Of a stretch of 64,000 nt of DNA, positions 9,077-24,766 are shown one piece after another. Within the stretch, counting starts at the first letter, position 1; every line of letters starts with the position of its first letter. The notes under the pieces are model-generated. The model was not told the DNA's origin and searched no databases. It saw nothing but the letters and a program-made list of their open reading frames with translations. Origin of the DNA: a virus (taxonomy: Duplodnaviria; Heunggongvirae; Uroviricota; Caudoviricetes); IMG/VR virus record IMGVR_UViG_3300010403_000021, positions 1-64,000 of that record; one strand, 5' to 3'. The position numbers and the translations under genes were made by a program.

Positions 9077-9215
9077 ATCATTGGAAAATCTTGAATCAGA
9101 AGTAAGCAGAAAAGTAAAAGTATTAGCCAATACCACTGATCCTACTAAAATCAAACAGCTCAATAAAGAAATTGATGCTTTAAATGTAAAAATCAAAGCA
9201 ATGAGAGGGAAATAA
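9069..9215 (+). CDS. small coiled-coil protein (48 aa)
   Basis: ATG overlaps previous stop; not in track. Confidence 0.3.
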   Translation: MNKSLENLESEVSRKVKVLANTTDPTKIKQLNKEIDALNVKIKAMRGK

Positions 9216-9216
9216 A

Positions 9217-9375
9217 ATGGCTATTGGCGATAAAGCATGGTTGGAAAATGAAAAACGTAAACTTATCAATCAAAGAACTGTAGCAATTGTTGCAGGTAAA
9301 CGTTTGAAGGTTTATCGCCTTAACAATCAGATTGCCAAGATCGAACAGCAGATTAAAGACATGCGAGGAAATTAA
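9217..9375 (+). CDS. small coiled-coil protein (52 aa)
   Basis: abutting ORFs; ends ...MRGN like its neighbour ...MRGK (paralogues). Confidence 0.3.
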   Translation: MAIGDKAWLENEKRKLINQRTVAIVAGKRLKVYRLNNQIAKIEQQIKDMRGN

Positions 9376-9377
9376 AC

Positions 9378-10199
9378 ATGTCTAAAATACTAGTAATGGG
9401 CGATATTCATGGAAACTGGACTTGGACAAAAAAGATTATCGATGTAGCTGTTGCTGAAGACATCGATAAAATTATTCAAGTTGGTGACTTTGGAGTTTGG
9501 CCAGGTCCGGAAGGTAGAGAATATCTTTTGATTCTATCCAGATATCTAGTAAAGAAAAGCAAAAAGCTGGGTAGACAAGTTAATCTATATTTTCTGCCGG
9601 GAAATCACGAAGACTACAATCAAATCGATCAGTGGATGCTGAACATCAAACCAAATGAATATGGACACCGAGAGATCGAACCTAATCTTTTCTATACCGG
9701 TAAAGTAAATAGTTGGATTTGGGAAGGTAAAAAGTTCGGTGTGGTTGGTGGTGCAGTATCCATTGATAGACGTAGTCGTAAACTCAATGAATCATGGTGG
9801 CCGCAGGAGGTTCTTACTTCTGAAGAAATTCATCAGGCAAAAGAACTAGGCAAAGTCGATTATCTATTCACACATGATTGTCCAACACAACATCCATTCA
9901 ACTTTCTGATTGATCACCTTGACTCCACTATTCATCGTCAGTTCATGACTGACATTGCCAGAGTACTGAAGCCAGAAGCATGGTTCCACGGTCACTATCA
10001 TCACTATGCGGAGTATTTATTTCATCATGGTACCGGAGTGACCCCAGTTTATTCTCTGGATGCTGACGTACGTGCTACACACTCTCCAAGTCTTCAGCGT
10101 CATACGGTTGTGCTGGACGTAGAGACTGGTGTAGTATCCAGCATAGACAAGCAGTTCGAGTGGTTCGGTCAGAGATTCTATTTTGATAGGGAGCGTTAA
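9378..10199 (+). CDS. calcineurin-like metallophosphoesterase (lambda-PPase-type Ser/Thr phosphatase fold)
   Basis: GDIHGN, GDFG, GNHE motifs. Confidence 0.65.
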   Translation: MSKILVMGDIHGNWTWTKKIIDVAVAEDIDKIIQVGDFGVWPGPEGREYLLILSRYLVKKSKKLGRQVNLYFLPGNHEDYNQIDQWMLNIKPNEYGHREIEPNLFYTGKVNSWIWEGKKFGVVGGAVSIDRRSRKLNESWWPQEVLTSEEIHQAKELGKVDYLFTHDCPTQHPFNFLIDHLDSTIHRQFMTDIARVLKPEAWFHGHYHHYAEYLFHHGTGVTPVYSLDADVRATHSPSLQRHTVVLDVETGVVSSIDKQFEWFGQRFYFDRER

Positions 10200-10200
10200 G

Positions 10201-10938
10201 ATGATGCATTCCAGTCTTGGTATGCGTATGAAAGAATATGAAAAGAATCTGGCTACAGATAATGGTGTCAATATCATTCGTCTTGACGGAAAGGCTTTTC
10301 ATACATGGACCAAAAAGATTACTGGAAACAAGAATCCTTTTAGTTCAGTGATTCATGAATGTATGGTTACGGCAACAATAGAATTAGCCAAGGAAGTGCA
10401 AGGATTTAAGCTTGCATATACACAATCAGATGAAACTACGCTACTTATGGAAAATATTAATGAAAAAACTGAAGCGTGGTTCGGTGGCAAGACGCACAAA
10501 ATTACTAGTGTTGCCGCGTCTATTTTTACTTATGCTTTTAATAATCGTTTTAAGTATTACATTGGTACTTTTGGCTATCCAGATATTCCTGCCTACTTTG
10601 ATGCTCGTGTTCATTCTATTCCAGTAGAAGACGCACCGAATAATTTTGTATGGCGTCAGAAAGACTGGAATCGTAATTCAATTCAAATGCTTGGCCAGTA
10701 CTATCTTCCTCGTAATGAGATGCAAAATCTTTCTAACACTCAAGTTCTTGAGTATCTTAGAGAATTAAGAGATATTGATTGGAATGATCTTGATGATTGG
10801 AAGAAGTATGGGACTTTCATTGCTAAGAATCATCTAGATTCAGAATCATATGGTCCTTATGTTGCATTTTCAGATTATCTAGATTATAAAGATATCGCAA
10901 TTCATGCAGGCATTCACAATTATATTGATTGGGATTAA
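10201..10938 (+). CDS. Thg1-like protein (tRNA-His guanylyltransferase family 3'-5' nucleotidyl transferase)
   Basis: KEYEK..IIRLDGKAFH and AYTQSDETTLL match Thg1 N-terminal and catalytic SDE motifs; SD AGGGAG before ATG 10201. Confidence 0.75.
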   Translation: MMHSSLGMRMKEYEKNLATDNGVNIIRLDGKAFHTWTKKITGNKNPFSSVIHECMVTATIELAKEVQGFKLAYTQSDETTLLMENINEKTEAWFGGKTHKITSVAASIFTYAFNNRFKYYIGTFGYPDIPAYFDARVHSIPVEDAPNNFVWRQKDWNRNSIQMLGQYYLPRNEMQNLSNTQVLEYLRELRDIDWNDLDDWKKYGTFIAKNHLDSESYGPYVAFSDYLDYKDIAIHAGIHNYIDWD

Positions 10939-10941
10939 TAA

Positions 10942-12852
10942 ATGCTACCTACTAAAACAGATATTCATGTAAGTGGTGATTTGGGCGGGGAAAGAGTACA
11001 GATGCGCCTTGATGCTGATAGTACAGCGCATCTTATGTCACTATTGACAGATCTATATTCTGACCCGCTTCTAGCAGTAATCAGAGAATATAGTACAAAT
11101 GCGTGGGATTCTCATGTAGCTGCTGGTGTAAATAAGCCAATTGAGGTAACCACACCAAATTATTTAACATCAACATTCCGTGTTAAAGATTATGGTCTTG
11201 GTATGGATGCGAATGATATTCGTGAAATCTATTCAAGTTATGGTGCTTCTACCAAGCGATCAAGCAATGATCAGGTTGGTATGCTCGGTCTTGGTAGTAA
11301 GAGTGGTTTGACTTATACCGATCAGTTTAATGTCATTGGTATTAAGAATGGTGTCAAGACCAGTGTTGCCGTTTCACGTTCTGGTGATGGTGGCGGTGTC
11401 ATGGAAATCATCGATGCTTCTCCCACCAATGAACCTAATGGTGTTGAGATTATTATTCCTATTAAAAAGAACAGCAATATTTTGAGTAAAGCTGAACAGT
11501 TCTTCAGATTTTGGGAACCGGGCAGAGTTTTGCTTAATGGTAAAGAGCCGCACTATATCTGGGAAGATTCAACCAAGGTCGGTAGATTTTACATCATCAA
11601 TGATGTAACAGACTATGTTGTCATGGGTAATGTCGCTTATCCGGTAAAGAATGAGATTACCGGCCAAGAGGGTTATAATCGTGAACGTGCTGTCGTAAAA
11701 GTTGATATCGGTGATGTTACCTTTACTCCTTCACGTGAATCATTGCAGATGACTCTTACCACTAAGAAAATGCTTTCAAGTTTACGTGAGGAATTCGCAG
11801 CAGAAGTAGTCAAGGAAATTGAAGTAAAGCTTTCTGCCTGTAATACTTATAAAGAAGCCTATAAAATGTTCAAGTCTTTAAGAAGCATGAATACTTTTAC
11901 AAGGCACATGAATAATGCAACCTACAAGGGAGCAAAGTACATTGAGTCTTATAAATTTGATTGGCATGTCAGCGGATTTCATCGTGATCAAATCAGCGCG
12001 GTGGAAGCGAGAAATTCCAGTCTCGGTTATGGTCTTGATAATATAGTTATTATTCATGGCTTCGATTGTGCTAGATTGAATGCTCCACAGAAAAAGAAGA
12101 TCAAGCTATATCTTGAGGACAATGGTATTCTTACCGGACAAGCTGTAGTATTTGTTAATAGAGATAAGCCTGATTCAGTATGGTTCAGTGAATGTCATCA
12201 GGTTGAATGGAAGACAATCAAGGCTATCAAGCTGGAATCTGCGAGGGTGGTAAGAACACAAGATACTTGGGATGTTCTTTGTTCACGTGGTAATAGGGAT
12301 TACAATCAGACTGTAGATAATACAAAGAAGCTTATTTATGGTTCCGGCGCTGAAATCAATGCCGATGCTGATCCTATTCTTGACATTCTTATCAATAACG
12401 ATACTCAGTTTCTTTTGGTTGGTAAAAATCGTCAAGATAAGTTTGTCAAGGCTAATCCAAAAGCAGTATATTGGCTTGACGAGGCTAAGGCCAGAGTGCT
12501 ACACTATATTGATAACGTAGCAAAAGATGACGTTAAACTGATCGACCAAGATATGAATCACATTGATATTCTATCAAGACTGGATATGTCTAAAATTGAT
12601 GATCCGGAAGTTAGTAGTATTGTATTCAGTGGTTCAGTAAATTCTCAGCACGCGGCACAACAACGATACAGCAATTATCGTAGATTGGCATCAAGACTAA
12701 AAGTTCCGGGTATGCCAGAACGTGTGGGTCGTGGCAATACAGATCTACTTGATAATTATCCTATGCTTACTCAGCTTGGATATAATTGTAGGTATGTTCC
12801 GGAAGAGCACATCTATGCTTACATGAATGCCATTTATGATTTAGGTCTATAA
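10942..12852 (+). CDS. rIIA: rIIA-like GHKL (Bergerat-fold) ATPase
   Basis: REYSTNAWDS (ExxxNAxD), DYGLGMD (DxGxG), GMLGLGSKSG; immediately upstream of rIIB homologue. Confidence 0.65.
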   Translation: MLPTKTDIHVSGDLGGERVQMRLDADSTAHLMSLLTDLYSDPLLAVIREYSTNAWDSHVAAGVNKPIEVTTPNYLTSTFRVKDYGLGMDANDIREIYSSYGASTKRSSNDQVGMLGLGSKSGLTYTDQFNVIGIKNGVKTSVAVSRSGDGGGVMEIIDASPTNEPNGVEIIIPIKKNSNILSKAEQFFRFWEPGRVLLNGKEPHYIWEDSTKVGRFYIINDVTDYVVMGNVAYPVKNEITGQEGYNRERAVVKVDIGDVTFTPSRESLQMTLTTKKMLSSLREEFAAEVVKEIEVKLSACNTYKEAYKMFKSLRSMNTFTRHMNNATYKGAKYIESYKFDWHVSGFHRDQISAVEARNSSLGYGLDNIVIIHGFDCARLNAPQKKKIKLYLEDNGILTGQAVVFVNRDKPDSVWFSECHQVEWKTIKAIKLESARVVRTQDTWDVLCSRGNRDYNQTVDNTKKLIYGSGAEINADADPILDILINNDTQFLLVGKNRQDKFVKANPKAVYWLDEAKARVLHYIDNVAKDDVKLIDQDMNHIDILSRLDMSKIDDPEVSSIVFSGSVNSQHAAQQRYSNYRRLASRLKVPGMPERVGRGNTDLLDNYPMLTQLGYNCRYVPEEHIYAYMNAIYDLGL

Positions 12853-12880
12853 AATAAACCAACCCGAAAGGTAAATAAAC

Positions 12881-13729
12881 ATGTCAAGAGCAGTAAAATA
12901 TAATCTAGTATGTAATGAATCAGATAATATTACAGTTTTCGTGGACGGTGAAATGTATGTCGCGGATTCAGATCACAATCCTAACTTTTCAGAGATCGTA
13001 GAAAAAGTACTTGCTGATGATGTTTCAGTAGTAGAACTATTTGATCTAGAAAAGACAGTCAGTAAGAAGTTTGAAAGACTATCAGAGCGAGTTGTTGTTC
13101 GTAATGGCAATATCTACTTTGATGGATCACCTGTTAACGATGTTCTTGGTAAGCAAGTTCTAAGATTCGTTGAAGATGACGTAGAAGATTGGCAGCCTCT
13201 TGTTCTATTCTGGGAGAATCTAGCCCAGAATCCCAATGAGCATTCACGTGAACAACTTTACAGTTGGCTTAATGATCGTAAATTCCAGATTTCTAAGAAT
13301 GGTAACATTGTTGGATTTAAGGGTGTCAAGATTGTTAATGGTGAATATCGTTCAATTCACGCCGGTCCAGCAATTGTGGATGACGTCGAAATGAATGGAT
13401 ATATTCCTAATGCCATTGGTTCAGTAATTGAAATGCCTCGTGCAGATGTTCAATCTAATTCAGCCGTAGGTTGTTCAACTGGTCTACATGTTGGTACATA
13501 TGATTATGCCAAGGATTTTGCTCAAGGCGCGGTGCTAACTGTTTCAGTTAATCCTCGTGATGTTGTGTCAGTTCCCTCTGATTGCAATGCAGCCAAGCTT
13601 AGAGTATGTCGTTATCGTGTAGTTAATGCAACAGCGGTAGAATGGTCAAGTGCTGTCTCTGACGTTGAAGATGACGAGGATAATGAAGACTATTGGTATG
13701 AAGACACCAATGACTATTGGACTTCCTAA
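12881..13729 (+). CDS. rIIB: rIIB-like protein
   Basis: VIEMPRADV...CSTGLHV...VNPRDVVSVPSDCNAAKLRVCRYRVV closely parallels T4 rIIB C-terminal conserved block. Confidence 0.75.
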   Translation: MSRAVKYNLVCNESDNITVFVDGEMYVADSDHNPNFSEIVEKVLADDVSVVELFDLEKTVSKKFERLSERVVVRNGNIYFDGSPVNDVLGKQVLRFVEDDVEDWQPLVLFWENLAQNPNEHSREQLYSWLNDRKFQISKNGNIVGFKGVKIVNGEYRSIHAGPAIVDDVEMNGYIPNAIGSVIEMPRADVQSNSAVGCSTGLHVGTYDYAKDFAQGAVLTVSVNPRDVVSVPSDCNAAKLRVCRYRVVNATAVEWSSAVSDVEDDEDNEDYWYEDTNDYWTS

Positions 13730-13744
13730 TGCTATAATTGGTTT

Positions 13745-14254
13745 ATGATTAAAAACCCTAAACCTGGAGATTATGGATTAACGACTATTGGTGGCGTCCT
13801 AGGTTTCTTTGTGAGCCTAGGACAACATCTAGCCGGTGACTCAAGTAAATACACACATGCCTTCATTGTATTAGATGATAATACAGTCTTGGCAGCACAA
13901 CCCGGTGGTGCTAGAATAGATAAGCTTAGTGACTACACCAACCGTGCAATCTACTCAGGCATGGACTTGACAGACACACAGCGACAGGCTATAGTAGAGC
14001 AAGCAAGAGCGCTTGAAGGCACTCCATACAGTTTCTTGGATTATTTAGCAATTGCCTTGGCAAGATTTGGTATTAAGCCAAAATGGTTAACTAATTTTAT
14101 AGCCAATAAGAAACATATGATCTGTTCACAGCTTGTTGACGAAGTTTATCGACATGCTGGAATACAACTTTTTAATGATGGAAGATTACCTCAAGAAGTT
14201 ACACCAGGCGATTTATTATATATTTTAGCCGGGGAACAAGACTGGATTGAATAG
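13745..14254 (+). CDS. putative papain-fold (NlpC/P60- or YiiX-like) cysteine peptidase
   Basis: Cys...His pattern (MICSQLVDEVYRHAG); weak. Confidence 0.3.
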   Translation: MIKNPKPGDYGLTTIGGVLGFFVSLGQHLAGDSSKYTHAFIVLDDNTVLAAQPGGARIDKLSDYTNRAIYSGMDLTDTQRQAIVEQARALEGTPYSFLDYLAIALARFGIKPKWLTNFIANKKHMICSQLVDEVYRHAGIQLFNDGRLPQEVTPGDLLYILAGEQDWIE

Positions 14255-14420
14255 TGTCCTTTACACAGAAGTGTAGATATTGTAATGAAAAGCTAACTTC
14301 AGTTAGTAGAAATACTTTTAATATGACAATGAAAAATCATGTTATGAATAGATGTAAGAAAGCTACATCGGCTATTAAAAGAGTATGGATAGATCAATAA
14401 AATAAGCCCACTTGGGCTAT

Positions 14421-14494
14421 ACCCCGTTAGCTCATGCGGACAGAGCGACAGCCTTCTAAGCTGTAGGTAATTGGTTCAAATCCAATACGGGGTG
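14421..14494 (+). tRNA. tRNA-Arg (anticodon TCT)
   Basis: acceptor ACCCCGT/ACGGGGT, D-arm GCTC..GAGC, anticodon stem ACAGC/GCTGT loop CTTCTAA, T-arm ATTGGTTCAAATCCAAT. Confidence 0.7.
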
Positions 14495-14513
14495 CAAGTA
14501 GAATTCTAGATAT

Positions 14514-14560
14514 CTACGAGTCAATATGGCGGTTCGAATCCGTAAGGGAAACATATTGAT
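14514..14560 (+). other. 8-bp hairpin TCAATATG/CATATTGA whose loop contains a tRNA T-loop-like GGTTCGAATCC
   Basis: perfect inverted repeat; no acceptor/anticodon arms; sits between two tRNAs. Confidence 0.3.
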
Positions 14561-14635
14561 GCCAGAGTAAGCACTTTCCAGCGATGTTATGCGTAGTGAA
14601 CGTGTAATATATCGAGTGGCTGTGTTGCTCTTTAA

Positions 14636-14707
14636 CTGCCTATGTCCGAGTGGTTTAGGAAATCGTCTGCAAAACGATTCACGCCGGTTCAATTCCGGCT
14701 AGGCAGT
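14636..14707 (+). tRNA. tRNA-Cys (anticodon GCA)
   Basis: perfect acceptor CTGCCTA/TAGGCAG, anticodon stem ATCGT/ACGAT loop CTGCAAA, T-arm GCCGGTTCAATTCCGGC. Confidence 0.7.
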
Positions 14708-14722
14708 CTTTTGAGGTGAAGA

Positions 14723-15025
14723 ATGACAAGAGAACAAATACTAGCTGATATACTTACTATGATAGAAGCAATGCCAGATTATTATAGTCTATCAGCATTA
14801 CAAACTATGGCAGCTAATAAACAATATACAATATTACAACTGGCAGAACACCCGCTAGGTGAAGGTAAATTCAGACTGGATTATGTAGTAAACAAAGCTA
14901 GCACCCCGGATAGATTTATGGTACAGATATTCGCTGATGGTGTTGGTGGAGATTTCTTTAATACATATTCAGATATAACAGATGTTGTTATTGTAGAATA
15001 CAATAGTTCACAGTATGACGTATAA
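14723..15025 (+). CDS. hypothetical protein
   Basis: ORF with SD GAGGTGAAG. Confidence 0.4.
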   Translation: MTREQILADILTMIEAMPDYYSLSALQTMAANKQYTILQLAEHPLGEGKFRLDYVVNKASTPDRFMVQIFADGVGGDFFNTYSDITDVVIVEYNSSQYDV

Positions 15026-15159
15026 TATTTATATATAATACACTGTTCATGGAGTTAGCTTTCCGAAAGGATAGGTGATAACATGGACCCGATATTCTGG
15101 TTACTAATCATTCTGGTAATTCTAGCTATTATATTTGTTGCAAGACGAGTATAATAGAA

Positions 15160-15177
15160 GCTAGCCGAAAGGCTAGC
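15160..15177 (+). terminator. GCTAGCCGAAAGGCTAGC hairpin (second copy)
   Basis: identical to 8812-8829. Confidence 0.5.
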
Positions 15178-15180
15178 GAG

Positions 15181-15249
15181 GCCCTTTAGTTTAATAGCAA
15201 AACCACGGTGTTACATACCGTAGTAGAGGGGGCAGAACCTTCAAGGGCT
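15181..15249 (+). tRNA. putative tRNA-Val (anticodon TAC) with atypical T-loop (GGCAGAA, no TTCGA)
   Basis: acceptor GCCCTT/AAGGGC, perfect anticodon stem ACGGT/ACCGT loop GTTACAT; T-arm non-canonical. Confidence 0.35.
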
Positions 15250-15265
15250 ACTCATATTACTGAAA

Positions 15266-15487
15266 ATGAGGATAAAAATGTCATATCATTTAAGTAGTGA
15301 TGCTAAGAAGTTATGTTTGCTAAAGTTTACACTTGCAAATTTGGATTCAAAAGATCCAAATAAAGATGCAGTTGCTAAAGAATTAGCATACATGGAGAAA
15401 AAGGTTAGAAAGAGTGTCGGTCGAAAAGACTGGCCTTTATTAAAAGCGGCAATTGATGGTTACTACAGCATGACTTACAGAAAGTAG
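15266..15487 (+). CDS. hypothetical protein
   Basis: ORF. Confidence 0.35.
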   Translation: MRIKMSYHLSSDAKKLCLLKFTLANLDSKDPNKDAVAKELAYMEKKVRKSVGRKDWPLLKAAIDGYYSMTYRK

Positions 15488-15636
15488 TTTAAAATGAATA
15501 ATAGCTTTAGATTTGCAATCTTGGTTGGCCTACAAAGACTTCCAAACTTATACGAGGGTACTGTGTTTGGTGCTGAAAAGGCCAAACGGAGAGCCAAAGG
15601 CAAGCTAGCACGTAAGGCCCGTAGGCTAAACAGAGC

Positions 15637-15665
15637 TTGACAAGTCACCGGAGACTTGCTAGACT
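15637..15665 (+). promoter_or_regulatory. promoter copy 4: TTGACA-N17-TAGACT
   Basis: exact consensus. Confidence 0.5.
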
Positions 15666-15805
15666 ACTAACTACAAGGTGGACGAAAGCCACTAGGCCAC
15701 TGGCCTGGCAGGCCCGATGGGAAGTCTTAAATGGTGTGCAGCATTTATTAAACTGAAAGCTGCTGTATCCTCGGCACCAGCCTTGTTTCTAACTTAAGGA
15801 GAGAA

Positions 15806-15964
15806 ATGCGCGAGAGAAGAGAATGTTTTCTTTGTGGTGATGTTGGAACTGTAGCCAAGAGACAAGATGATCATACCGGTAAATGGTTTTGTGCATCTAA
15901 AAAGCCTGGCGACAAGAAAACCTGTCTAGCTATTGCTAGAGAAACCATGCAAAGAAAGAAATAA
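15806..15964 (+). CDS. small Zn-ribbon protein (52 aa, CxxC...C)
   Basis: strong SD TAAGGAGAG 6 nt upstream; not in track (<60 aa). Confidence 0.45.
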   Translation: MRERRECFLCGDVGTVAKRQDDHTGKWFCASKKPGDKKTCLAIARETMQRKK

Positions 15965-16124
15965 TAACTTAATGGTACTGTAGCCCAAAGAAAGAGGCGT
16001 GTAGCCTAAAGCTACATACAGTGTGAAAACTAGTCAGGTGTGAAATGACCTCACCAGTACCATTAGCAAGAGAAAATTGTATAATATAAATTGGCATGAT
16101 ATAATCATGCCAGGTGAATATAAT

Positions 16125-17231
16125 ATGGAAACAAGAGCTGAGCGCTTTGAACGAGATGTACCGGTAATCAATGAAATTATTGATGCTAGGATAGTAGAAT
16201 CCGGCGGTGGAGATGGTGCAGCATTAGCAGGGCCATCAGATTATCCAGGTACTGATACAACAAATAATACTGTTGGCGTATCAATTAAAGCAGCAAGATC
16301 TGATCATTCACATAGTGGTGCTTCATTAACTGACTTAACTAATGGATTGGCTACTAAGGCAAATACCAATCACACTCATGATGATAGATATTATACTGAA
16401 TCAGAAATAGATACAGCTTTAGCAGGCAAAGCCTCAAGCAGTCATACGCATACAATAGCCAATGTTACTGGATTGCAGACAGCAATCGACGGTAAGCAAG
16501 CGACCGACCAAGATCTAACAGATATAGCAGCTTTGACAGCATCAAATAATGATTTTCTACAGCGTAAATCAGGTGCATGGACTAATAGAACAATAGCACA
16601 GGTAAAAACAGATCTAGCTTATGCTACGGTAGCAACAAGTGGATCATTTGATGATTTAACAAATAAACCAGATCCTTCATTTATGGTAGAGAAGTATTAT
16701 CAAGATGAATATGGTATTTATAGTATAACTGGATCTCCAATACATTTTCTATCTTCATCACCTTGGGGAGCAACTGATCATAATATATCAGCATTATTTG
16801 TTCCCGCCGGGAAAGCAATAACAGCGGTACGTGTAGCTATTAGAGTATCAGCATCATTTTCTGCTACATCAGCAGCATCACAAGTTAAGATATATGATGT
16901 TACTGGTGCCCTGATTGGATCATCACCAGACGATAATACAATGGCTCTAGCAAGAGGTTGGAGTCTACAAACATTATCAACACCAATTGCATCATCTGGT
17001 TCAAATAGATATGTATTTGTTGGTGTTTCATTAGGTGGTTTTGCCGGTGCATCATTGGCTTGGCCTACGGGCATTTCAACTGATGTACCTGAGATTACAA
17101 GCGTTGGTTCATTTACTGGATTAAGAAGAGGTTTTTATGCCTCTAATGCGTCTGGTTTGCCTGGTTCATTTAATCCGGCGTCGTATGGAACGGCTACATC
17201 ATATCTACCGTTGCTTGGTCTTGTAGCTTGA
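16125..17231 (+). CDS. tail fibre protein (start uncertain; track ORF begins 16077 with TTG)
   Basis: repeated xHTHxxxYYTxSEIDT and S/T/G-rich repeats typical of phage fibres. Confidence 0.55.
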   Translation: METRAERFERDVPVINEIIDARIVESGGGDGAALAGPSDYPGTDTTNNTVGVSIKAARSDHSHSGASLTDLTNGLATKANTNHTHDDRYYTESEIDTALAGKASSSHTHTIANVTGLQTAIDGKQATDQDLTDIAALTASNNDFLQRKSGAWTNRTIAQVKTDLAYATVATSGSFDDLTNKPDPSFMVEKYYQDEYGIYSITGSPIHFLSSSPWGATDHNISALFVPAGKAITAVRVAIRVSASFSATSAASQVKIYDVTGALIGSSPDDNTMALARGWSLQTLSTPIASSGSNRYVFVGVSLGGFAGASLAWPTGISTDVPEITSVGSFTGLRRGFYASNASGLPGSFNPASYGTATSYLPLLGLVA

Positions 17232-17272
17232 CATGCAGGCTGATCTAGGCTAAGATCGTATCAACAACACAA

Positions 17273-17356
17273 GCCCCCTTGGCTGGAATGGCAGACGCGC
17301 TGCACTCAAAATGCAGTCCTCGAAAGAGGGTATCGGTTCGAATCCGATAGGGGGTA
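17273..17356 (+). tRNA. tRNA-Leu (anticodon CAA), type II
   Basis: acceptor GCCCCCT/AGGGGGT, anticodon stem CTGCA/TGCAG loop CTCAAAA, variable-arm hairpin CCTC-GAAA-GAGG, T-arm ATCGGTTCGAATCCGAT. Confidence 0.75.
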
Positions 17357-17369
17357 CGCTTTAAATAAT

Positions 17370-17451
17370 GCCCGTGTGGCTGGAATGGCAGACGCGCCGT
17401 GCTTAGAACGCGGTCCAGAAATGGGTGCAGGTTCGACTCCTGTCACGGGTA
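17370..17451 (+). tRNA. tRNA-Leu (anticodon TAG), type II
   Basis: acceptor GCCCGTG/CACGGGT (G1-U72), anticodon stem CCGTG/CGCGG loop CTTAGAA, variable arm, T-arm with TTCGACT. Confidence 0.7.
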
Positions 17452-17478
17452 CTTTATTAATAAAACATTGGAGTTAAT

Positions 17479-17676
17479 GTGAAATTATCACAATGTCTTG
17501 GTAAAAGAGTAAAGCATACAAGAAAGCCACCAAATAATCATATTATTGCTAACGGTGTTCTAGAAAGAACAAAACACGGTATATATGAGATTGCTCGTGA
17601 CGACGGTGGCTATTCTGCAATATTCAATGGTGATACATTGGAATGCAATGGCAAAAGTTTTATTGTTAAACAATGA
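17479..17676 (+). CDS. hypothetical protein
   Basis: ORF with SD GGAG. Confidence 0.35.
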   Translation: MKLSQCLGKRVKHTRKPPNNHIIANGVLERTKHGIYEIARDDGGYSAIFNGDTLECNGKSFIVKQ

Positions 17677-17695
17677 CAAACTTAGTTTGTTCATA

Positions 17696-17766
17696 CCTCT
17701 CGTAGCTCAATGGTAGAGCGTTGGGTTGTGATCCCAAATACGCGGGTTCGATTCTCGTCGGGGGGA
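17696..17766 (+). tRNA. tRNA-His (anticodon GTG); several G-U pairs in acceptor and T-stem
   Basis: D-arm TAGCTCAATGGTAGAGC, perfect anticodon stem TTGGG/CCCAA loop TTGTGAT; acceptor CCTCTCG/CGGGGGG with two G-U. Confidence 0.55.
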
Positions 17767-17802
17767 CTTTATAGGTTATCACGTAATCTCCGGAGGTTGA
17801 TA

Positions 17803-18006
17803 ATGAGTTGGTCAACAGGTGACAAATCAAATAGAAGTCTTAAAAAGACGGAAAAACATCCTTGCGATGTATGTGGTTTGTCTGTAGATCATTATATTGA
17901 TGGAACAATTAGTAAACACAAGGTCTTTCTTTATAAGAGACTAAAAAATGGTTCTTATCAGAAGACTAGTAATTGGGCTTATTGCGATAATAAGAAGTGG
18001 CGATAA
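17803..18006 (+). CDS. hypothetical protein (first ATG after tRNA-His in track ORF 17710)
   Basis: track ORF start overlaps tRNA. Confidence 0.35.
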   Translation: MSWSTGDKSNRSLKKTEKHPCDVCGLSVDHYIDGTISKHKVFLYKRLKNGSYQKTSNWAYCDNKKWR

Positions 18007-18305
18007 TGGCGTCGAAACAAAAATGTGCAAAGTGTGGCAAGAACGTCATGCATTATGATGACCGTTCAATAGAAGTACATAAACCACCTGGTAAGACATT
18101 TTATTGTGATAGAAAGACTTATTAATGAGCAGACCTGGATATGGAATTATTGTTTACTACAAGAATGGTAAGACTTTAAAGCAAATTGTAGCCAATAATC
18201 CACGTACTAGAAACAATGTTATTAAACTCTGGCTTAAGAAACCAGATGTTGATAAAGTAGAAAAATATACTGAAAAAGATTATTTACCATAAGCCGAAAG
18301 GCTAT

Positions 18306-18386
18306 GCTAGTGTTGAACAGGTGGTGTGTTCCGCAGACTGTAAATCTGCCGCTTCGGCATTGGGGGTTCGATTCCCTTCACTAGTA
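18306..18386 (+). tRNA. tRNA-Tyr (anticodon GTA), long variable arm
   Basis: acceptor GCTAGTG/CACTAGT (G1-U72), D-stem GAAC/GTTC, perfect anticodon stem GCAGA/TCTGC loop CTGTAAA, T-arm GGGGGTTCGATTCCCTT. Confidence 0.7.
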
Positions 18387-18492
18387 CTTAAATTTATTGA
18401 CTGATTAAGTTAGGACAATTGGCTTATGAGCTGGGTCAAAAGTCAGGGCTTAGGCTATATAAGGGCGAAATGCAGTCATTAATAGGCTCAAT

Positions 18493-18589
18493 GGAAGAAT
18501 GGCAACTGAGGGAATGTTGCACCCTGCCGGTAAGTCAGGGATTGATTGGACGCAATCATAAAACGTAGGTTCGAGTCCTCCTTCTTCCA
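18493..18589 (+). tRNA. type II tRNA-like gene (97 nt) with an apparent 9-nt anticodon loop CCGGTAAGT; isotype unassigned
   Basis: perfect acceptor GGAAGAA/TTCTTCC, D-stem GCAA/TTGC, anticodon stem CCCTG/CAGGG, variable-arm hairpin GATTG-GACG-CAATC, T-arm GTAGGTTCGAGTCCTCC. Confidence 0.4.
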
Positions 18590-18612
18590 CTTCATATAAT
18601 GAAAGGTATAAA

Positions 18613-18840
18613 ATGATTACTGTCAGAGAACTAATTGAACAGCTTCAGGTTCTACCGCCGGAAACAACAGTATGGGTTGCAACTGATAATGAAGGTAATG
18701 ATTACAGTGCTCTTCATCAGGTGGCAATGATGGATACATTTGAAACAGAAGAATACGACGATGTTATTGAAAAGTGGTACAAAGATGTATTCAAACGTCT
18801 AGGTGACGAAGAAGTCGTAATGCTTTGGCCGGTGAACTGA
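18613..18840 (+). CDS. hypothetical protein
   Basis: ORF. Confidence 0.35.
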   Translation: MITVRELIEQLQVLPPETTVWVATDNEGNDYSALHQVAMMDTFETEEYDDVIEKWYKDVFKRLGDEEVVMLWPVN

Positions 18841-19127
18841 TGCTTGATCCCAATGATAATATGATTTTTACGGTTGAAGATTTTCGAGGTATTACCGTAA
18901 AGATTGGTGATTTGATCGCTCGTGGTTTTGTTGTGGGTCGTAGTGCACATACCAGAATTGGTAAAGTATTACAGTTCAAGCGAATTCCGCAGGATTATGG
19001 GAAACCAAATTACTATGTCCAAGTTGATTGGATTATGGGAGAAGGATGGGGAATGCCAGCTAAACCAACACTTATTTTTGTACACCCATCAAAAAATAAT
19101 GATTTCTTTATCGTAGACCTACCTTGA
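18825..19127 (+). CDS. hypothetical protein
   Basis: ORF overlapping previous stop. Confidence 0.35.
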   Translation: MAGELMLDPNDNMIFTVEDFRGITVKIGDLIARGFVVGRSAHTRIGKVLQFKRIPQDYGKPNYYVQVDWIMGEGWGMPAKPTLIFVHPSKNNDFFIVDLP

Positions 19128-19131
19128 GGTA

Positions 19132-19641
19132 ATGATGACTGATTATATTGATATGTACTATAAGCCCAGCCCAGGTGATAAAACAACCAAACGTCAATAT
19201 GTTGAAGTGAGACGTAGTCGTGCTAGATATGGACTACACTATACTGATACATGGTCACTTGATCATTATTTAGCTATTGTCATTTCTAATTCATTGAAGA
19301 TGCTTGCTGAACATTCTATTTCTTTTCCCGGCGTTGAACCGTTTGAAGATCCTGACGATTGGGTATCAGCACTACTGTATCACTCTGAAAGCTTCAAACT
19401 TTATGCTGAACGTGGCAAGTTTGAGACTGAATCTCATGGTGATTATGAATGGCCTGAACATGATTGGGATGATTATTTTCGAGAAGAAGATGGTCATACA
19501 TATTGGAATCTTCCTGAAGATGAAGAAGAACCAATGCGTTTATGGTCTGAAAAATGCCGGGAGAATGAAGTAGTCACCAAAGAACGTATCGATGAATCCC
19601 TTGACTTTCTAAAAGAATGGTGGGAGGCACTATGGGACTAG
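19132..19641 (+). CDS. acidic hypothetical protein
   Basis: ORF, D/E/W-rich. Confidence 0.4.
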   Translation: MMTDYIDMYYKPSPGDKTTKRQYVEVRRSRARYGLHYTDTWSLDHYLAIVISNSLKMLAEHSISFPGVEPFEDPDDWVSALLYHSESFKLYAERGKFETESHGDYEWPEHDWDDYFREEDGHTYWNLPEDEEEPMRLWSEKCRENEVVTKERIDESLDFLKEWWEALWD

Positions 19642-19868
19642 ATCATACAAGATATATTGTCTTTCTTAAGAGTGCTATTTTTTATCAAAACGCTAATCCA
19701 GGCCAAAGAATTGGTCAAGCATACTATAACTGTTTTAGGATTATGTGGCCTGGATTTGAACGTGAAGTTGTGAACACAGAATTTGATTGTTTTAATGATG
19801 ATAATAAGCTACCAGGCTTCCTCACATGGGTACAAGCCAAGCTTGACATACTTGATGCTGGACTGTAG
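19617..19868 (+). CDS. hypothetical protein
   Basis: ORF. Confidence 0.35.
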   Translation: MVGGTMGLDHTRYIVFLKSAIFYQNANPGQRIGQAYYNCFRIMWPGFEREVVNTEFDCFNDDNKLPGFLTWVQAKLDILDAGL

Positions 19869-20002
19869 AATTAAGTCATCGCCAGGAGGTGACTTAAATG
19901 GTTCTTAAGCTAAAAGCTTTAGTTGCCAAGATTAAAGCTAATCTCCCATTGATTAAAATTCTTTGGCAAAATCGTAAACGTAAGTCGTAATAAATAGCCC
20001 GA

Positions 20003-20073
20003 AAGGGCCTTAGGAGCGAGCCAACGGATAGGCATTTTCTCTCCAAAAGAAAACGAAATACGGTTCGACTCCG
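20003..20073 (+). tRNA. tRNA-Trp (anticodon CCA)
   Basis: perfect acceptor AGGAGCG/CGCTCCT, perfect anticodon stem TTTCT/AGAAA loop CTCCAAA, T-arm TACGGTTCGACTCCGTA. Confidence 0.75.
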
Positions 20074-20111
20074 TACGCTCCTGCTCTAATAAAACAACAG
20101 AATGGGTTACA

Positions 20112-20363
20112 ATGAATAAGCGTCCACTTGCTGTTATTGGTGTCTGTGTCGCAGCTCTACTTATTGGTCTAATGCTTAGTGCATGTTCGGCAGTTGCACC
20201 TCGTTCAAGGGCTATGTGCGCGGTAGAAGAAGTAGAAACTGAAGTAAAGAATGGCGTAAGGCGTTTTGAAGTAGATTTCAAGAATGGTAAAGAGCAGGTC
20301 ATTAGTGAAATTCAATACAACGTATGGAAGCGCAATCTTCCTGCGACTCTACCATGTCCTTGA
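20112..20363 (+). CDS. putative lipoprotein (signal peptide + lipobox LSAC)
   Basis: MNKRPLAVIGVCVAALLIGLMLSAC. Confidence 0.4.
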   Translation: MNKRPLAVIGVCVAALLIGLMLSACSAVAPRSRAMCAVEEVETEVKNGVRRFEVDFKNGKEQVISEIQYNVWKRNLPATLPCP

Positions 20364-20388
20364 CAGTCAGATCGTCACATGCTAGACT
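20360..20388 (+). promoter_or_regulatory. promoter copy 5: TTGACA-N17-TAGACT, just upstream of tRNA-Ala/Pro
   Basis: exact consensus. Confidence 0.5.
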
Positions 20389-20413
20389 AGCTGTACCGCC
20401 CGAAAGGGTATTG

Positions 20414-20484
20414 GGGTTAAGGTGTTAAGGGTTGCACAATTCTTTTGCAAGGAATAGGATAGGGTTCGACTCCCTATAGCTCCA
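20414..20484 (+). tRNA. tRNA-Ala (anticodon TGC) with G3:U70
   Basis: acceptor GGGGTTA/TAGCTCC including the Ala identity G3-U70; anticodon loop TTTGCAA; T-arm TAGGGTTCGACTCCCTA. Confidence 0.65.
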
Positions 20485-20549
20485 CTTTAAGGTATTAGTC
20501 CTCATCTAATACATCGATTGGCTTACTGTTAGAGTAGACCTTTAAGCGT

Positions 20550-20620
20550 GAATCGAAATCTGGGTGTAGTGAAATGGTATAATGCTAGTTTTGGGAACTA
20601 GTGACGGGAGTTCGATTCTC
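20550..20620 (+). tRNA. tRNA-Pro (anticodon TGG)
   Basis: perfect anticodon stem CTAGT/ACTAG loop TTTGGGA, T-arm GGGAGTTCGATTCTCCC; acceptor with two wobbles, weak D-stem. Confidence 0.5.
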
Positions 20621-20649
20621 CCCATCCGGACTCACAAAAGGAGTTTATA

Positions 20650-20865
20650 ATGTTTGATAAACTTTTAGGTCGTAAGACGCGTTGGAACTGGGGTAAAAAC
20701 TCCAAAAATGAACTTCGACTAATTGAAAAACGTCAATTTATAAGAGACACATTTGAAGAGCTTGCTCAAGATAAAGACGAACAATTAGCCGATGAACAGG
20801 ATAGAATATATCAAGAATGGCTGTCTAATCACTGGGCATTCAAAATGTTAAATGATAGTAACTAG
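20650..20865 (+). CDS. hypothetical protein
   Basis: ORF with SD AAGGAG. Confidence 0.4.
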   Translation: MFDKLLGRKTRWNWGKNSKNELRLIEKRQFIRDTFEELAQDKDEQLADEQDRIYQEWLSNHWAFKMLNDSN

Positions 20866-20938
20866 CTGTAGGGAAGCTTGGTCATCCCACTACATTTGGA
20901 TTGTAGAAAGCGCAAGTTCGAATCTTGCCAGCTAGACG
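20865..20938 (+). tRNA. tRNA-Pro (anticodon TGG), second copy
   Basis: perfect acceptor CTAGCTG/CAGCTAG, D-stem GGGA/TCCC, anticodon stem CTACA/TGTAG loop TTTGGAT, T-arm GCAAGTTCGAATCTTGC. Confidence 0.6.
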
Positions 20939-21126
20939 TGTCAACCAAACATAAAGGTAATGGACCATTTGGTATAAAAATAGTATATCAAAATGGGGAT
21001 ATTGTGTATATGTGGAATAAAGATGAATCAAAAAGAGATTCTGAATATGCATATGCATTGAAATCGAAAGCTACTAGAGTAGCCGCCGGGGTGCAAAATC
21101 ATCAAGTGACAAAAGTAAACAGATAA
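20936..21126 (+). CDS. small protein with GNGPFGIKI motif (paralogue of 4380-4541); start uncertain (possible GTG overlapping tRNA end)
   Basis: shared G.G.FGIKI..Q motif; track ORF start lies inside tRNA. Confidence 0.3.
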
Positions 21127-21160
21127 AACTAATATATCCAATAGCAACCAAAGGACAGAA

Positions 21161-21343
21161 ATGGAAAACGTCAAGGCTTATGCAATCAAGGGAGCCATCT
21201 GGGTCGGCGTGATTGCATTAGGTTTATTAGTTTTTGTGGGGCAGCAAGAGGCGACAGATTTTCTTATGTGGGTAGTTACTACAATCAAGGAACTATTCAT
21301 TGGAATTAAGACAGTCATCATCAATGTAAAGAATGGTGTTTAG
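21161..21343 (+). CDS. small membrane protein (60 aa)
   Basis: two hydrophobic helices. Confidence 0.4.
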   Translation: MENVKAYAIKGAIWVGVIALGLLVFVGQQEATDFLMWVVTTIKELFIGIKTVIINVKNGV

Positions 21344-21385
21344 AATTGACATCCCTTGATCTAGGATGTAAAATAAAAGATCAAG

Positions 21386-21456
21386 GCTGGCTTAGTTTAG
21401 AGGTAAAATAATTGGCTTCCACCCAATAGTCAAGGGTTCAATTCCCTTAGCCCGCA
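21386..21456 (+). tRNA. tRNA-Gly (anticodon TCC)
   Basis: perfect anticodon stem ATTGG/CCAAT loop CTTCCAC, T-arm AAGGGTTCAATTCCCTT; acceptor 6/7 with one mismatch. Confidence 0.5.
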
Positions 21457-21493
21457 CTACCCTTGGTGTTCGTAATTGTCCACCTTGGGCCAA

Positions 21494-21564
21494 GCGAATA
21501 TGATGTAGTGGTAGCCTTTAACCTTGCCAAGGTTGGTGTGCGGGTTCGATTCCCGCTATTCGCT
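21494..21564 (+). tRNA. tRNA-Gly (anticodon GCC)
   Basis: perfect acceptor GCGAATA/TATTCGC, T-arm GCGGGTTCGATTCCCGC, anticodon loop TTGCCAA. Confidence 0.65.
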
Positions 21565-21580
21565 CATAAGGAGTTAAATA

Positions 21581-21799
21581 ATGCGTAAAACGCATAGGTT
21601 TGAATCAATAAAAAGTGCTATTTGTAAGAAGTGTAGAAGAAAAGATTTTATAGAAGAGAAATGCAAGGATGATGGATGCGTTTTTGTTCAGACTAGAAGT
21701 ATTCCATGTAAATGTGCAGAGAAACATCGTAGACAATTAATCAAGGATGCCAATAAGGCAGATAGCTACAAGAGGTCGACGTGGCGCGGTATGAAGTAA
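21581..21799 (+). CDS. Cys-rich (Zn-finger-like) small basic protein
   Basis: CKKC...C.DDGC...CKC pattern; SD AAGGAG. Confidence 0.4.
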   Translation: MRKTHRFESIKSAICKKCRRKDFIEEKCKDDGCVFVQTRSIPCKCAEKHRRQLIKDANKADSYKRSTWRGMK

Positions 21800-22023
21800 A
21801 GAAAAGATCAAATGAAGACTTTGTAAAAAGTAAATACAGAAATAAACCATATGCTGAACATTGTTTTGGTGTGTGGGATCGTGTTAATAACCATTGGATC
21901 ATTGGTTATGATTTCAGATCAAAATCGGCTTGTAATGCAATGTGTGACATTCTTAATTTAAGAGAGAGTTCTCTACGGCCGGGTAGAAAACGCGTAAATG
22001 GTAAAGGATCTGATTTTCAATGA
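21781..22023 (+). CDS. small protein, RYxVKKR...FGVWD family (paralogues at 23319 and 24067)
   Basis: shared RY.VK.R...FG(V/I)WD motif in three ORFs. Confidence 0.4.
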   Translation: MARYEVKKRSNEDFVKSKYRNKPYAEHCFGVWDRVNNHWIIGYDFRSKSACNAMCDILNLRESSLRPGRKRVNGKGSDFQ

Positions 22024-22175
22024 GACCATATCAAGTATTGCCTTGTCAGCTAGATAAGATAGCAATTTATAACTTCAAAAGTAAGAAATTTGTAACACCG
22101 CCGATTAGAAATACAGTCTCGAATAGAGAAATTCTTAGACAGCAATGTGATAAAATGAATAAAGCCTCTAAATGA
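22020..22175 (+). CDS. small hypothetical protein (51 aa)
   Basis: ATG overlaps previous stop; not in track. Confidence 0.3.
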   Translation: MRPYQVLPCQLDKIAIYNFKSKKFVTPPIRNTVSNREILRQQCDKMNKASK

Positions 22176-22181
22176 GGTCAA

Positions 22182-22250
22182 GGCGGAGGGATTGGTATCC
22201 AACTAAGATTCATATCCTTGGTTTTGTGAGTTCGACTCTCACCTTCGCTA
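22182..22250 (+). ncRNA. tRNA-like element (T-arm GTGAGTTCGACTCTCAC, acceptor-like GGCGGAG/CTTCGCT with two G-U); anticodon arm not canonical
   Basis: T-loop consensus and acceptor pairing present, D/anticodon arms could not be folded canonically. Confidence 0.3.
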
Positions 22251-22355
22251 CGTACGGTTTGCTAGGTTGACAGTAAAACCGCTGATTGATAAGCTTACAT
22301 CACTGCCCTAGGGCGGCAATCAAAATCCTAGCACTAAAACTACAATGGAGTTGAT

Positions 22356-22529
22356 ATGGATCAACGATCTAGAAATCGTATTCGTGAACATGGCTCACAT
22401 TGGATTGAAATAGAAGAAAGAAATAATGTATTGTGTCTTGGTGGTCCTGCTATTCTGATGAAATGCCAAGGCAAATGTAATTGGTTTGGTTGGATTAAAA
22501 CTGAGGCACTGAGGAGTACTAATGTCTAA
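22356..22529 (+). CDS. small Cys-containing hypothetical protein (57 aa)
   Basis: SD GGAG; not in track. Confidence 0.3.
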   Translation: MDQRSRNRIREHGSHWIEIEERNNVLCLGGPAILMKCQGKCNWFGWIKTEALRSTNV

Positions 22530-22725
22530 ATGGCATGAAAAGATTGCTAAAGAGCTTGGTTCTCATCATAGTGATACACAGGCTGTTGTTCGTTCAGGAA
22601 AACGCGGTGCGAAGAAACGTACTAATAGACTTGAACGTAGGATATCAAAGCTACAAGCAAGAGCTATGGAGTCTTTGACTGAAGAACGAAAGAAGCAAGC
22701 TTTTATGCTATTGGATGATATGTAA
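22522..22725 (+). CDS. small basic hypothetical protein
   Basis: ORF. Confidence 0.35.
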   Translation: MSKWHEKIAKELGSHHSDTQAVVRSGKRGAKKRTNRLERRISKLQARAMESLTEERKKQAFMLLDDM

Positions 22726-22865
22726 TGGCAAGAATGATTAATAGAATTCAATGCGCTAACAACGAATGCATCAAGCGTTGTGGTCATTGCTTTTCTTACA
22801 GAAACAAAAGAGTAAAGAGTGGTATTAGGTCACTCGAAAAGAAGCAATGGCTTAGAGAAATCTAA
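22725..22865 (+). CDS. small Cys-rich hypothetical protein (46 aa)
   Basis: abutting ATG; not in track. Confidence 0.25.
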   Translation: MARMINRIQCANNECIKRCGHCFSYRNKRVKSGIRSLEKKQWLREI

Positions 22866-22890
22866 GCTTTGGCCACTTAAATGTTAATGG

Positions 22891-23220
22891 ATGCATAGAA
22901 GACTGAAAATCTTCAAGTCAGGGATCGTTACCCTGGGGTGGCACGTGAAATATTATTTGTTTAATTATAGTCAAGGTGTTATAACCGGGATATATACTTC
23001 AAGTGAATTACCCTCAAATGTACCAGATTCAAACTGCTATCAAAAAGATTTTGATATAGAATTTAAATATTTTGATATGAACATTTTTAATGCATATGTT
23101 TGGCTAGGAAAAGATGGAACACCAAGCATTGTATGGGTAACAGAATATGAAATGAAAAGACGTGAAGCCGACAGAGATGAACGGTTGGCTAAACATAAAG
23201 ATAATGAAGATGCTTGGTAA
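22891..23220 (+). CDS. hypothetical protein
   Basis: ORF. Confidence 0.4.
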   Translation: MHRRLKIFKSGIVTLGWHVKYYLFNYSQGVITGIYTSSELPSNVPDSNCYQKDFDIEFKYFDMNIFNAYVWLGKDGTPSIVWVTEYEMKRREADRDERLAKHKDNEDAW

Positions 23221-23318
23221 GCTAGGCTGGTTTGGTCAATGCTCTTGTTGTAATGGTCCTAGATCAAAACATCAAATGAAACGTCTTGAGAAGCGTTTGT
23301 GGAAAAGAGAATATAATG

Positions 23319-23492
23319 TCAGATAATTTTTCAGGCAATCTTGCAATTGGTAAAGATCGTTATGTAGCAAGACCCCATGAAGACAAATGGGGAGTATATG
23401 ATAATGTAAATAAGTGTTTTACCAAAACTGGTCTTACAAAAGCTTCAGCTTTAGCAGAAGTAGATAGACTAAAGACCAGACATAGAAAATAG
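23319..23492 (+). CDS. small protein, RYV...WGVYD family paralogue
   Basis: internal ATG of track ORF 23286; family motif. Confidence 0.35.
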   Translation, partial: SDNFSGNLAIGKDRYVARPHEDKWGVYDNVNKCFTKTGLTKASALAEVDRLKTRHRK

Positions 23493-23498
23493 TTTTGG

Positions 23499-23572
23499 AG
23501 CGGGGTGGTGCAGTTTGGTAGCTCAGCGGGTTCATATCCCGAAGGTCGAAGGTTCAAATCCTTCCCCCGCTA
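23499..23572 (+). tRNA. tRNA-Met/Ile2 (anticodon CAT)
   Basis: perfect acceptor AGCGGGG/CCCCGCT, T-arm GAAGGTTCAAATCCTTC, anticodon loop TTCATAT. Confidence 0.6.
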
Positions 23573-23587
23573 TTTTAAGGAGTTAAA

Positions 23588-23875
23588 ATGCATAGACCAA
23601 TTTATCATAATGATCAGCCATATATGGCTAAAGCAGAAATATGTAAAGAATGTAGTCACGATGATGTTTTAGTTCCAGTAAGTTTTTGCCCGGAAGCAAT
23701 GAGATATCTAGAGGCTGATGAAAGACTAGATGATCTAATCGCTGCTTGGCACGCCGGTGCAGAACCAATGAAGCAATTACATGAGTATTTAGGTTGGACC
23801 ATACTGGAATATACATATTGGGTTGTGACTTCGGAACTTCCACAACATTTTATAGATGAACGATTTAAGGATTAA
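23588..23875 (+). CDS. hypothetical protein
   Basis: ORF with SD AAGGAG. Confidence 0.4.
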   Translation: MHRPIYHNDQPYMAKAEICKECSHDDVLVPVSFCPEAMRYLEADERLDDLIAAWHAGAEPMKQLHEYLGWTILEYTYWVVTSELPQHFIDERFKD

Positions 23876-24065: not shown

Positions 24066-24066
24066 G

Positions 24067-24246: not shown

Positions 24247-24282
24247 CCCAAAATAGAAGAATTATAACGAGGGGATTTTATA

Positions 24283-24760: not shown

Positions 24761-24766
24761 TATTAA

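Follow-up and report, generated by a model that had tools for sequence, protein, structure and literature searches.

A bacterial-type Thg1-like protein gene in an uncultured tailed phage and its probable part in tRNA 5'-end repair

Positions 1 to 64,000 of the IMG/VR virus record IMGVR_UViG_3300010403_000021, a member of the Caudoviricetes, make up the whole stretch of DNA analysed here (64,000 nucleotides, hereafter the window), and they carry a gene for a Thg1-like protein (TLP). Judged by its sequence and modelled fold, the gene encodes an intact TLP of the bacterial type that is predicted to act as a 3'-5' polymerase. We consider that it probably serves the general, templated repair or maintenance of tRNA 5' ends as one component of a phage RNA-repair kit. 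The gene is located as follows:

10201..10938, + strand: TLP gene, 245 aa (244 aa with the start at ATG 10204)

The open reading frame begins either at ATG 10201 or at ATG 10204, the latter being the start of an identical database protein (P0001), and runs on the + strand to the stop codon at 10936-10938, with a GGGAG ribosome-binding site 7-10 nt 5' of the gene start. An earlier sequence-only reading had assigned the gene to the Thg1/TLP family from two motifs, and both MKEYEK...IIRLDGKAFH and LAYTQSDETT are present in the translation. Profile searches bear the assignment out. The protein matches the Pfam family Thg1 (PF04446) significantly, at E 1.1e-24 and 87.2 bits (cut-off 29.2) over profile positions 3-130 of 130, and it matches PHROG 4717 'tRNA-His guanylyltransferase' at E 2e-65; NCBIfam returned no match, and the Thg1 C-terminal domain (PF14413) was not matched in the Pfam search. 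The closest solved relative by sequence is the TLP of Bacillus thuringiensis (BtTLP, 4KGK; E 2.4e-34, 122 bits, residues 5-212), and human Thg1 (31.5 bits) and the Methanosarcina TLP both reach merely about 1e-6 in the same search of solved structures. Because the match to BtTLP stands at 122 bits against 31 bits for human Thg1, the phage protein is placed with the bacterial TLP type.

The catalytic apparatus is complete. Residues D29, S76, D77 and E78 of the phage TLP align with D29, S75, D76 and E77 of human Thg1, in which D29, D76 and E77 are the two-metal catalytic carboxylates and S75 is the adjacent activation serine, and none of the four varies among 20 aligned homologues that share 39-82% identity with the phage protein. 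The motif region reads WRQKDWNRNSIQM in the phage TLP, WRQQDASKNSISM in BtTLP and WRQADCHINNL in human Thg1; the HINNLYN-type Thg1 region is absent from the phage protein, whose motif is BtTLP-like. An AlphaFold (AF2) model built on the 20-homologue alignment reached a predicted local distance difference test score (pLDDT) of 92.2 and a predicted template modelling score (pTM) of 0.90. When this model was searched against the PDB with Foldseek, the top 32 matches were all Thg1/TLP structures, with BtTLP first (template modelling score, TM, 0.78-0.83), and the first match outside the family appeared at E about 8e-3. A cyclic-nucleotide or GGDEF/Cas10-like signalling role, considered in view of the related palm folds, was rejected, as such structures match weakly (E >= 0.015).

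The gene lies among several others with recognizable functions in RNA handling, and within an extended tRNA array:

489..29507, + strand: array of 26 tRNA or tRNA-like genes among small open reading frames (25 by ARAGORN; one more, at 489-559, by Rfam)
5180..6784, + strand: gene for a Ro60 RNA-binding protein (TROVE + vWA; Pfam TROVE, vWA_Ro60)
9378..10199, + strand: calcineurin-like metallophosphoesterase gene (Pfam Metallophos, E 2e-14; PHROG 1649)
10942..13729, + strand: rIIA-like and rIIB-like genes (PHROG 612 and 609), taken as synteny anchors, with no functional link claimed
31127..32260, + strand: gene for a T4 Rnl1-type RNA ligase (Pfam RNA_lig_T4_1, E 5.6e-15; PHROG 562, E 1e-64)
32634..33581, + strand: gene for Pnkp, polynucleotide kinase-phosphatase (Pfam HAD_PNKP, E 1.8e-46, plus an AAA_33 kinase domain; PHROG 505, E 1e-81)

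A role in RNA end repair is proposed because of several features of this context, among them the coupling to the metallophosphoesterase gene, the synteny with Ro60, the presence of Rnl1 and Pnkp, and the surroundings of the TLP gene in Rhodococcus phage Weasels2, the closest GenBank relative, where RtcB, a 2'-5' RNA ligase and a phosphoesterase are encoded near the TLP. Only 2 nt separate the stop of the preceding gene from the TLP gene start, and the TLP gene is translationally coupled to this upstream metallophosphoesterase gene, whose product is a possible end-processing partner of the TLP and found no solved relative by sequence search. The metallophosphoesterase gene lies directly 5' of the TLP gene in most of the related contigs fetched. 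The same arrangement, about 1 kb 5' and on the same strand, was also seen in three distant contexts (L052, L095 and L098), where the proteins are 27% identical to the window protein, and a recurrent two-gene module of metallophosphoesterase and TLP is suggested. Ro60 is likewise encoded 5' of the TLP in most related contigs fetched, giving a conserved RNA-handling block, and the order TLP-rIIA-rIIB is kept in all related contigs examined (about 130-140 kb), which usually have Ro60 and a Band-7 protein 5' of the block and tRNA genes scattered on both sides. Rnl1 and Pnkp, which the sequence-only reading had named as companions of the TLP, were both confirmed in the window by Pfam and PHROGs and are encoded about 20 kb 3' of the TLP gene. 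Phage Thg1 has already been placed among RNA-repair genes in a comparative review (PMC7824862).

Activation of the tRNA 5' end followed by templated 3'-5' addition is established for the TLP family (PMC3061083, PMC4820378). BtTLP and MaTLP are known to add nucleotides by Watson-Crick templating and to prefer 5'-truncated tRNAs (PMC3061083), and for BtTLP the preference amounts to 5-160-fold, the activity is template dependent and non-His tRNAs are also used (PMC3061083). By homology, the phage protein, as a predicted active palm-domain TLP, would activate a tRNA 5'-monophosphate with ATP or GTP and would then add nucleotides in the 3'-5' direction, templated by Watson-Crick pairing with the 3' strand of the acceptor stem, until the stem is complete. 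The gene would be co-transcribed with the metallophosphoesterase gene, in a conserved Ro60 block inside a large tRNA array, and its job would be to refill the acceptor stems of tRNAs, from phage, host or both, that have lost nucleotides of the 5' strand through nicking or trimming. Family, fold, catalytic residues, conservation and gene context are what the analysis establishes, and from them we infer which substrate is used and which way the benefit runs. Such an activity would complement the healing and sealing of anticodon-loop breaks by Pnkp and Rnl1, and the phage tRNA-His may receive a templated -1 nucleotide as a side or secondary reaction. The TLPs found without a phage tRNA-His nearby, in six of ten relatives, in phages Bcp1 and P018-4 and in a Mycobacterium phlei prophage (all detailed below), are counted in favour of general repair. 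The earlier claim that the phage mends both 5' and 3'/anticodon damage to tRNAs can accordingly be kept in part: a 5'-end function beside Pnkp and Rnl1 is the best reading, and the coupling to tRNA-His G-1 that came with the claim is not supported.

Several points weigh against general 5'-end repair. Its main weakness is that neither a host nuclease nor a defence system is known to us that takes nucleotides off the 5' side of the acceptor stem, and the damage to be repaired is for this reason hypothetical. Our literature search found no phage TLP that has been studied biochemically or genetically, and for bacterial TLPs in general no physiological role has been settled (PMC3061083, PMC6471195). 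The host was not identified, a scan of bacterial genomes having returned only relatives of <=44% identity, mainly from Paenibacillus, actinobacteria and metagenome-assembled genomes. The neighbourhood counts for 80 IMG/VR TLP loci, in which a phosphoesterase homologue lies within 10 kb of the TLP in 14 (4 with the window-type query and 11 with the Weasels2-type query, one shared), Rnl1 in 5 and Pnkp in 5, themselves speak for a repair context but carry no background control. Finally, a non-canonical tRNA-His is encoded close to the TLP in four members of the phage family, this phage included, and a role in tRNA-His biology thus keeps some likelihood.

That role is the alternative that survives best. 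The tRNA concerned starts 6.8 kb 3' of the TLP gene:

17696..17766, + strand: tRNA-His(GUG), found by ARAGORN and, with the same bounds, by Rfam (tRNA, 63.6 bits, model positions 1-71)

Its acceptor stem consists of C1-G72, C2-G71, U3.G70, C4-G69, U5.G68, C6-G67 and G7-C66, its discriminator is A73 and only C74 of the CCA end is encoded; the bacterial G-1:C73 pair is replaced by a eukaryote-like A73. The observation that no G-1 is encoded was upheld on inspection of the 5' end, the bounds being fixed by ARAGORN and Rfam together and base -1 being A. Under the dedicated-maturation explanation, RNase P would cut at C1 and the TLP would then add G-1, or a templated U-1, opposite A73, the -1 nucleotide extending the acceptor stem to 8 bp and bringing the -1 phosphate, both needed by histidyl-tRNA synthetase (HisRS). 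We regard this as unlikely to be the purpose of the gene. What speaks for it is the position of an A73 tRNA-His without encoded G-1 6.8 kb away, together with the non-canonical tRNA-His genes near the TLP in three relatives. It is further favoured by the ability of BtTLP to add a -1 nucleotide to A73 tRNA-His, and by the rescue of a yeast thg1 deletion via U-1 (PMC3061083, PMC6471195). The same enzyme also supplies a point on the other side, as its kcat/KM for G-1 addition is 108 M-1 s-1 with A73 compared with 5500 M-1 s-1 with C73 (PMC3061083), and when given both GTP and UTP it favours U-1 over G-1 about 40-fold opposite A73 (PMC3061083). From these kinetics and the preference for U over G, no discriminator suits G-1 addition by an enzyme of the TLP type less well than A73.

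The distribution of the two genes likewise argues against dedicated maturation. Among ten distinct TLP-bearing members of the family, a tRNA-His was present in the fetched flanks of four, with bases -1 and 73 being a and A73 in the window and in L003, g and A73 in L005, and a and U73 in L179; none has the G-1:C73 pair. It was not found in the fetched flanks of the other six (L004, L007, L008, L009, L180 and L181); this sample is made up of TLP-centred flanks rather than whole genomes, by which the coupling is weakened only. The six include a close relative covered across the equivalent tRNA region (IMGVR_UViG_3300005334_000001), in which two overlapping loci correspond to 0-41 kb of the window and hold about 25 tRNAs, none of them tRNA-His or tRNA-Tyr. 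Conversely, mycobacteriophage Bongo (L088) encodes a nearly identical tRNA-His at 58081-58152, with a at -1, C1-G72, A73 and C74 (cata, then CCTCTTG...CAGGGGG-A-C), and its 35-80 kb region gave no TLP match even at E 10; RtcB is carried by Bongo. A tRNA-His without G-1 is also found in RB18 (T4-like, L175), Aeromonas phage avDM12 (L176) and Streptomyces phage Blueeyedbeauty (L089), all with t at -1, C73 and an encoded CCA, and the groups of these three phages are almost absent from the 158 TLP-bearing GenBank phage records. An E. coli-like tRNA-His occurs in 152 Escherichia and 134 Klebsiella phage records. The list of organism names for the 158 TLP-bearing records, which shows ten names down to one with four records, includes neither genus. 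Many TLP phages, moreover, have few or no tRNAs near the gene: no tRNA was found in 40 kb around the TLP of Bacillus phage Bcp1 or in 50 kb around that of Vibrio phage P018-4, and a prophage of M. phlei has a TLP with only Asn, Gln and Trp tRNAs (PMC4860684). In the 80 IMG/VR loci, a tRNA-His near the TLP is uninformative outside the family, most loci having no tRNAs within 10 kb.

Across related phages, as far as the fetched flanks show, the TLP and a G-1-less tRNA-His are not co-inherited. The specific proposal of the sequence-only reading, that the TLP supplies G-1 to the phage tRNA-His, is left unsupported by the TLP type of the enzyme, the A73 discriminator, the lack of co-occurrence in relatives, the Bongo case and the other G-1-less tRNA-His genes. 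A modified version, rather doubtful in our estimation, is that the TLP gives the non-canonical tRNA-His a templated -1 nucleotide (U-1:A73 or A-1:U73) and thereby makes it chargeable by HisRS. Were this true, it would be a virus-encoded, templated counterpart of the Thg1-dependent tRNA-His maturation of eukaryotes and would give bacterial-type TLPs their first physiological client.

We give still less credence to a second alternative, in which the TLP acts on other RNAs, either through a fix of mismatched tRNAs resembling 5' editing or on tRNA-like (Y-RNA-type) partners of Ro60. The correction of encoded acceptor-stem mismatches by 5' editing has its precedent in amoebozoan mitochondria, and bacterial and mycobacteriophage Ro60 genes usually adjoin Y RNAs with tRNA-like modules. 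In the present family, Ro60 is syntenic with the TLP over most members, and the tRNA-Gly(UCC) at 21386-21456 has a U3xC70 acceptor mismatch, which two relatives share, with covariation at pairs 6:67 and 7:66; in Dictyostelium, TLP3 repairs 5'-edited mitochondrial tRNAs (PMC6471195). Set against this, a mismatch at acceptor positions 1-3 is confined to this one tRNA among 122 tRNAs of the family (those of the window and of L003, L004, L005, L007, L008, L009 and L173), Rfam showed no Y RNA near Ro60, either at its gathering threshold or with the limit relaxed to E 1, and no candidate 5' trimming nuclease has been demonstrated. The three copies of the mismatched tRNA-Gly(UCC) lie at 21386-21456 in the window, 19784-19855 in L004 and 1360-1431 in L173, with A or G as discriminator rather than the usual U73, and this tRNA could be a 5'-editing substrate or a tRNA of altered identity. 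An apparent A1xC72 mismatch in tRNA-Ala (L003 and L008) was discarded as an ARAGORN start-site artefact, as seen on alignment with the window copy. In the region that runs up to and includes Ro60 (window 3107-6784), four tRNA-like genes, three tRNA-Lys and a tRNA-Leu-UAG at 5005-5076, precede the Ro60 gene, with non-coding gaps of about 750 nt.

That the gene is no more than a Thg1-fold relic, inactive or put to another use and without nucleotidyl transfer on tRNA, is extremely improbable, given that the catalytic and nucleotide-binding residues are all invariant in homologues down to 39% identity, the full-length fold is confidently predicted and the gene is kept in its syntenic position in every relative examined.

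The tRNA genes themselves show several further regularities. CCA is encoded by none of the genes of the window array and by none of the 122 family tRNA genes, and in 114 of these 122 a C directly follows the discriminator and is itself followed by non-C bases. The lone conserved C74 suggests a signal for processing, be it by RNase P or by trimming of the 3' end, or else a base that CCA addition needs. Bacterial-type tRNAs are normally Watson-Crick paired at 1:72, and a wobble at this position is unusual; in the family, G.U at 1:72, the top of the acceptor stem, occurs in 29 of the 122 tRNAs, including the following:

Window tRNAs with G.U at 1:72: Lys-CUU 4192, Leu-CAA 17273, Leu-UAG 17370, Tyr 18306, Ile 27200

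Some members of the array are atypical. The gene at 489-559 was found by Rfam alone (40.6 bits), a second tRNA-Tyr at 18493-18590, of 98 nt, combines a very long extra arm with an anticodon stem that pairs imperfectly, and a 70-nt tRNA at 29438-29507 has a 6-nt anticodon loop and received no ARAGORN assignment. At 17048-17120 of L008, in the tRNA-His slot after tRNA-Leu(UAG), there is a weak tRNA-like gene whose CUA anticodon would read amber codons; this 'tRNA-Pyl(CUA)' was considered as a tRNA-His homologue and rejected, the two not being homologous.

A protein identical to the TLP is encoded on a metagenomic contig of 139,461 bp, and homologues sharing 43-82% identity with it come from contigs 131-140 kb long. 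The G+C content of the window is 41%, and megablast of positions 9300-13000 against GenBank phages gave no match. At the protein level, the closest GenBank phage relatives of the TLP are from Rhodococcus, Bacillus and Mycobacterium phages (38-42% identity), those of rIIA are from Streptomyces phages (38-39%), and the window tRNA-His is closest to those of cluster M mycobacteriophages. A kinship with T4-like or jumbo phages, as the sequence-only reading implied, does not fit a phage of about 139 kb whose rIIA, TLP and tRNA-His are closest to actinobacteriophages. Between the window and IMGVR_UViG_3300005334_000001 (L008 and L173), Rnl1 is 98% and the metallophosphoesterase 97% identical, whereas the adjoining TLP is only 73% identical, and this difference points, from sequence comparison, to probable recent recombination or mosaicism at the TLP gene.

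Genes for TLPs are widespread in phages. A tblastn search found them in 158 GenBank phage records, with 'tRNA-His guanylyltransferase' as the annotation in most of those listed, and a TLP relative is encoded by 415 IMG/VR contigs. A Thg1 gene was noted in Bacillus phage Bc431v3 in 2013 (PMC3601020), and a 2021 review grouped Thg1 with the RNA-repair genes of jumbo phages (PMC7824862). Neither the occurrence of Thg1 genes in phages nor their link to RNA repair is new to the literature, and the present locus adds a divergent member rather than a new kind of system. What it contributes is a well-conserved family of uncultured phages with a tidy operon and a non-canonical tRNA-His. The role of bacterial-type TLPs has been open since 2010, their behaviour in vitro being repair-like at the 5' end and their natural damaged substrate still being sought. 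Since phage copies adjoin recognized RNA-repair genes, the phage TLPs beside Ro60, phosphoesterase, Rnl1 and Pnkp are a practical place to look for that substrate and for any host nuclease that produces it.

Among known systems, the nearest is BtTLP (4KGK/4KGM), which is the best match in both sequence and structure and shares with the phage protein the catalytic carboxylates, the WRQxDxxxNSI motif and a length of about 245 aa. The two differ in that identity is about 31-33% in the Foldseek structural alignments, the phage protein has a short extra C-terminal segment (residues ~213-245) outside the sequence alignment, and the phage copy lies within an RNA-repair and tRNA island. The phage genes of PHROG 4717, such as Weasels2 gp185, Bc431v3 gp143 and Bcp1 gp164, are similar in belonging to large tRNA-bearing phages and share 38-42% identity; however, protein identity to any GenBank phage copy is <45% and there is no megablast match. 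The Ro60/Metallophos-TLP-rIIA-rIIB arrangement is specific to the uncultured phage family of ~130-140 kb. Eukaryotic Thg1, which performs non-templated G-1 addition, belongs to the same superfamily and uses the same chemistry, and the phage tRNA-His, with A73 and no G-1, resembles its substrate, but the phage TLP scores only 31 bits to human Thg1 and has neither the HINNLYN-type motif nor a match to the C-terminal domain. The Pnkp/Rnl1 pathway of T4, both enzymes of which are encoded in the window, follows the same logic of countering tRNA damage, and T4 itself is not known to have a TLP. By analogy, the tasks would be divided: T4 Pnkp and Rnl1 heal and seal internal breaks, whereas the TLP would rebuild missing 5'-terminal nucleotides.

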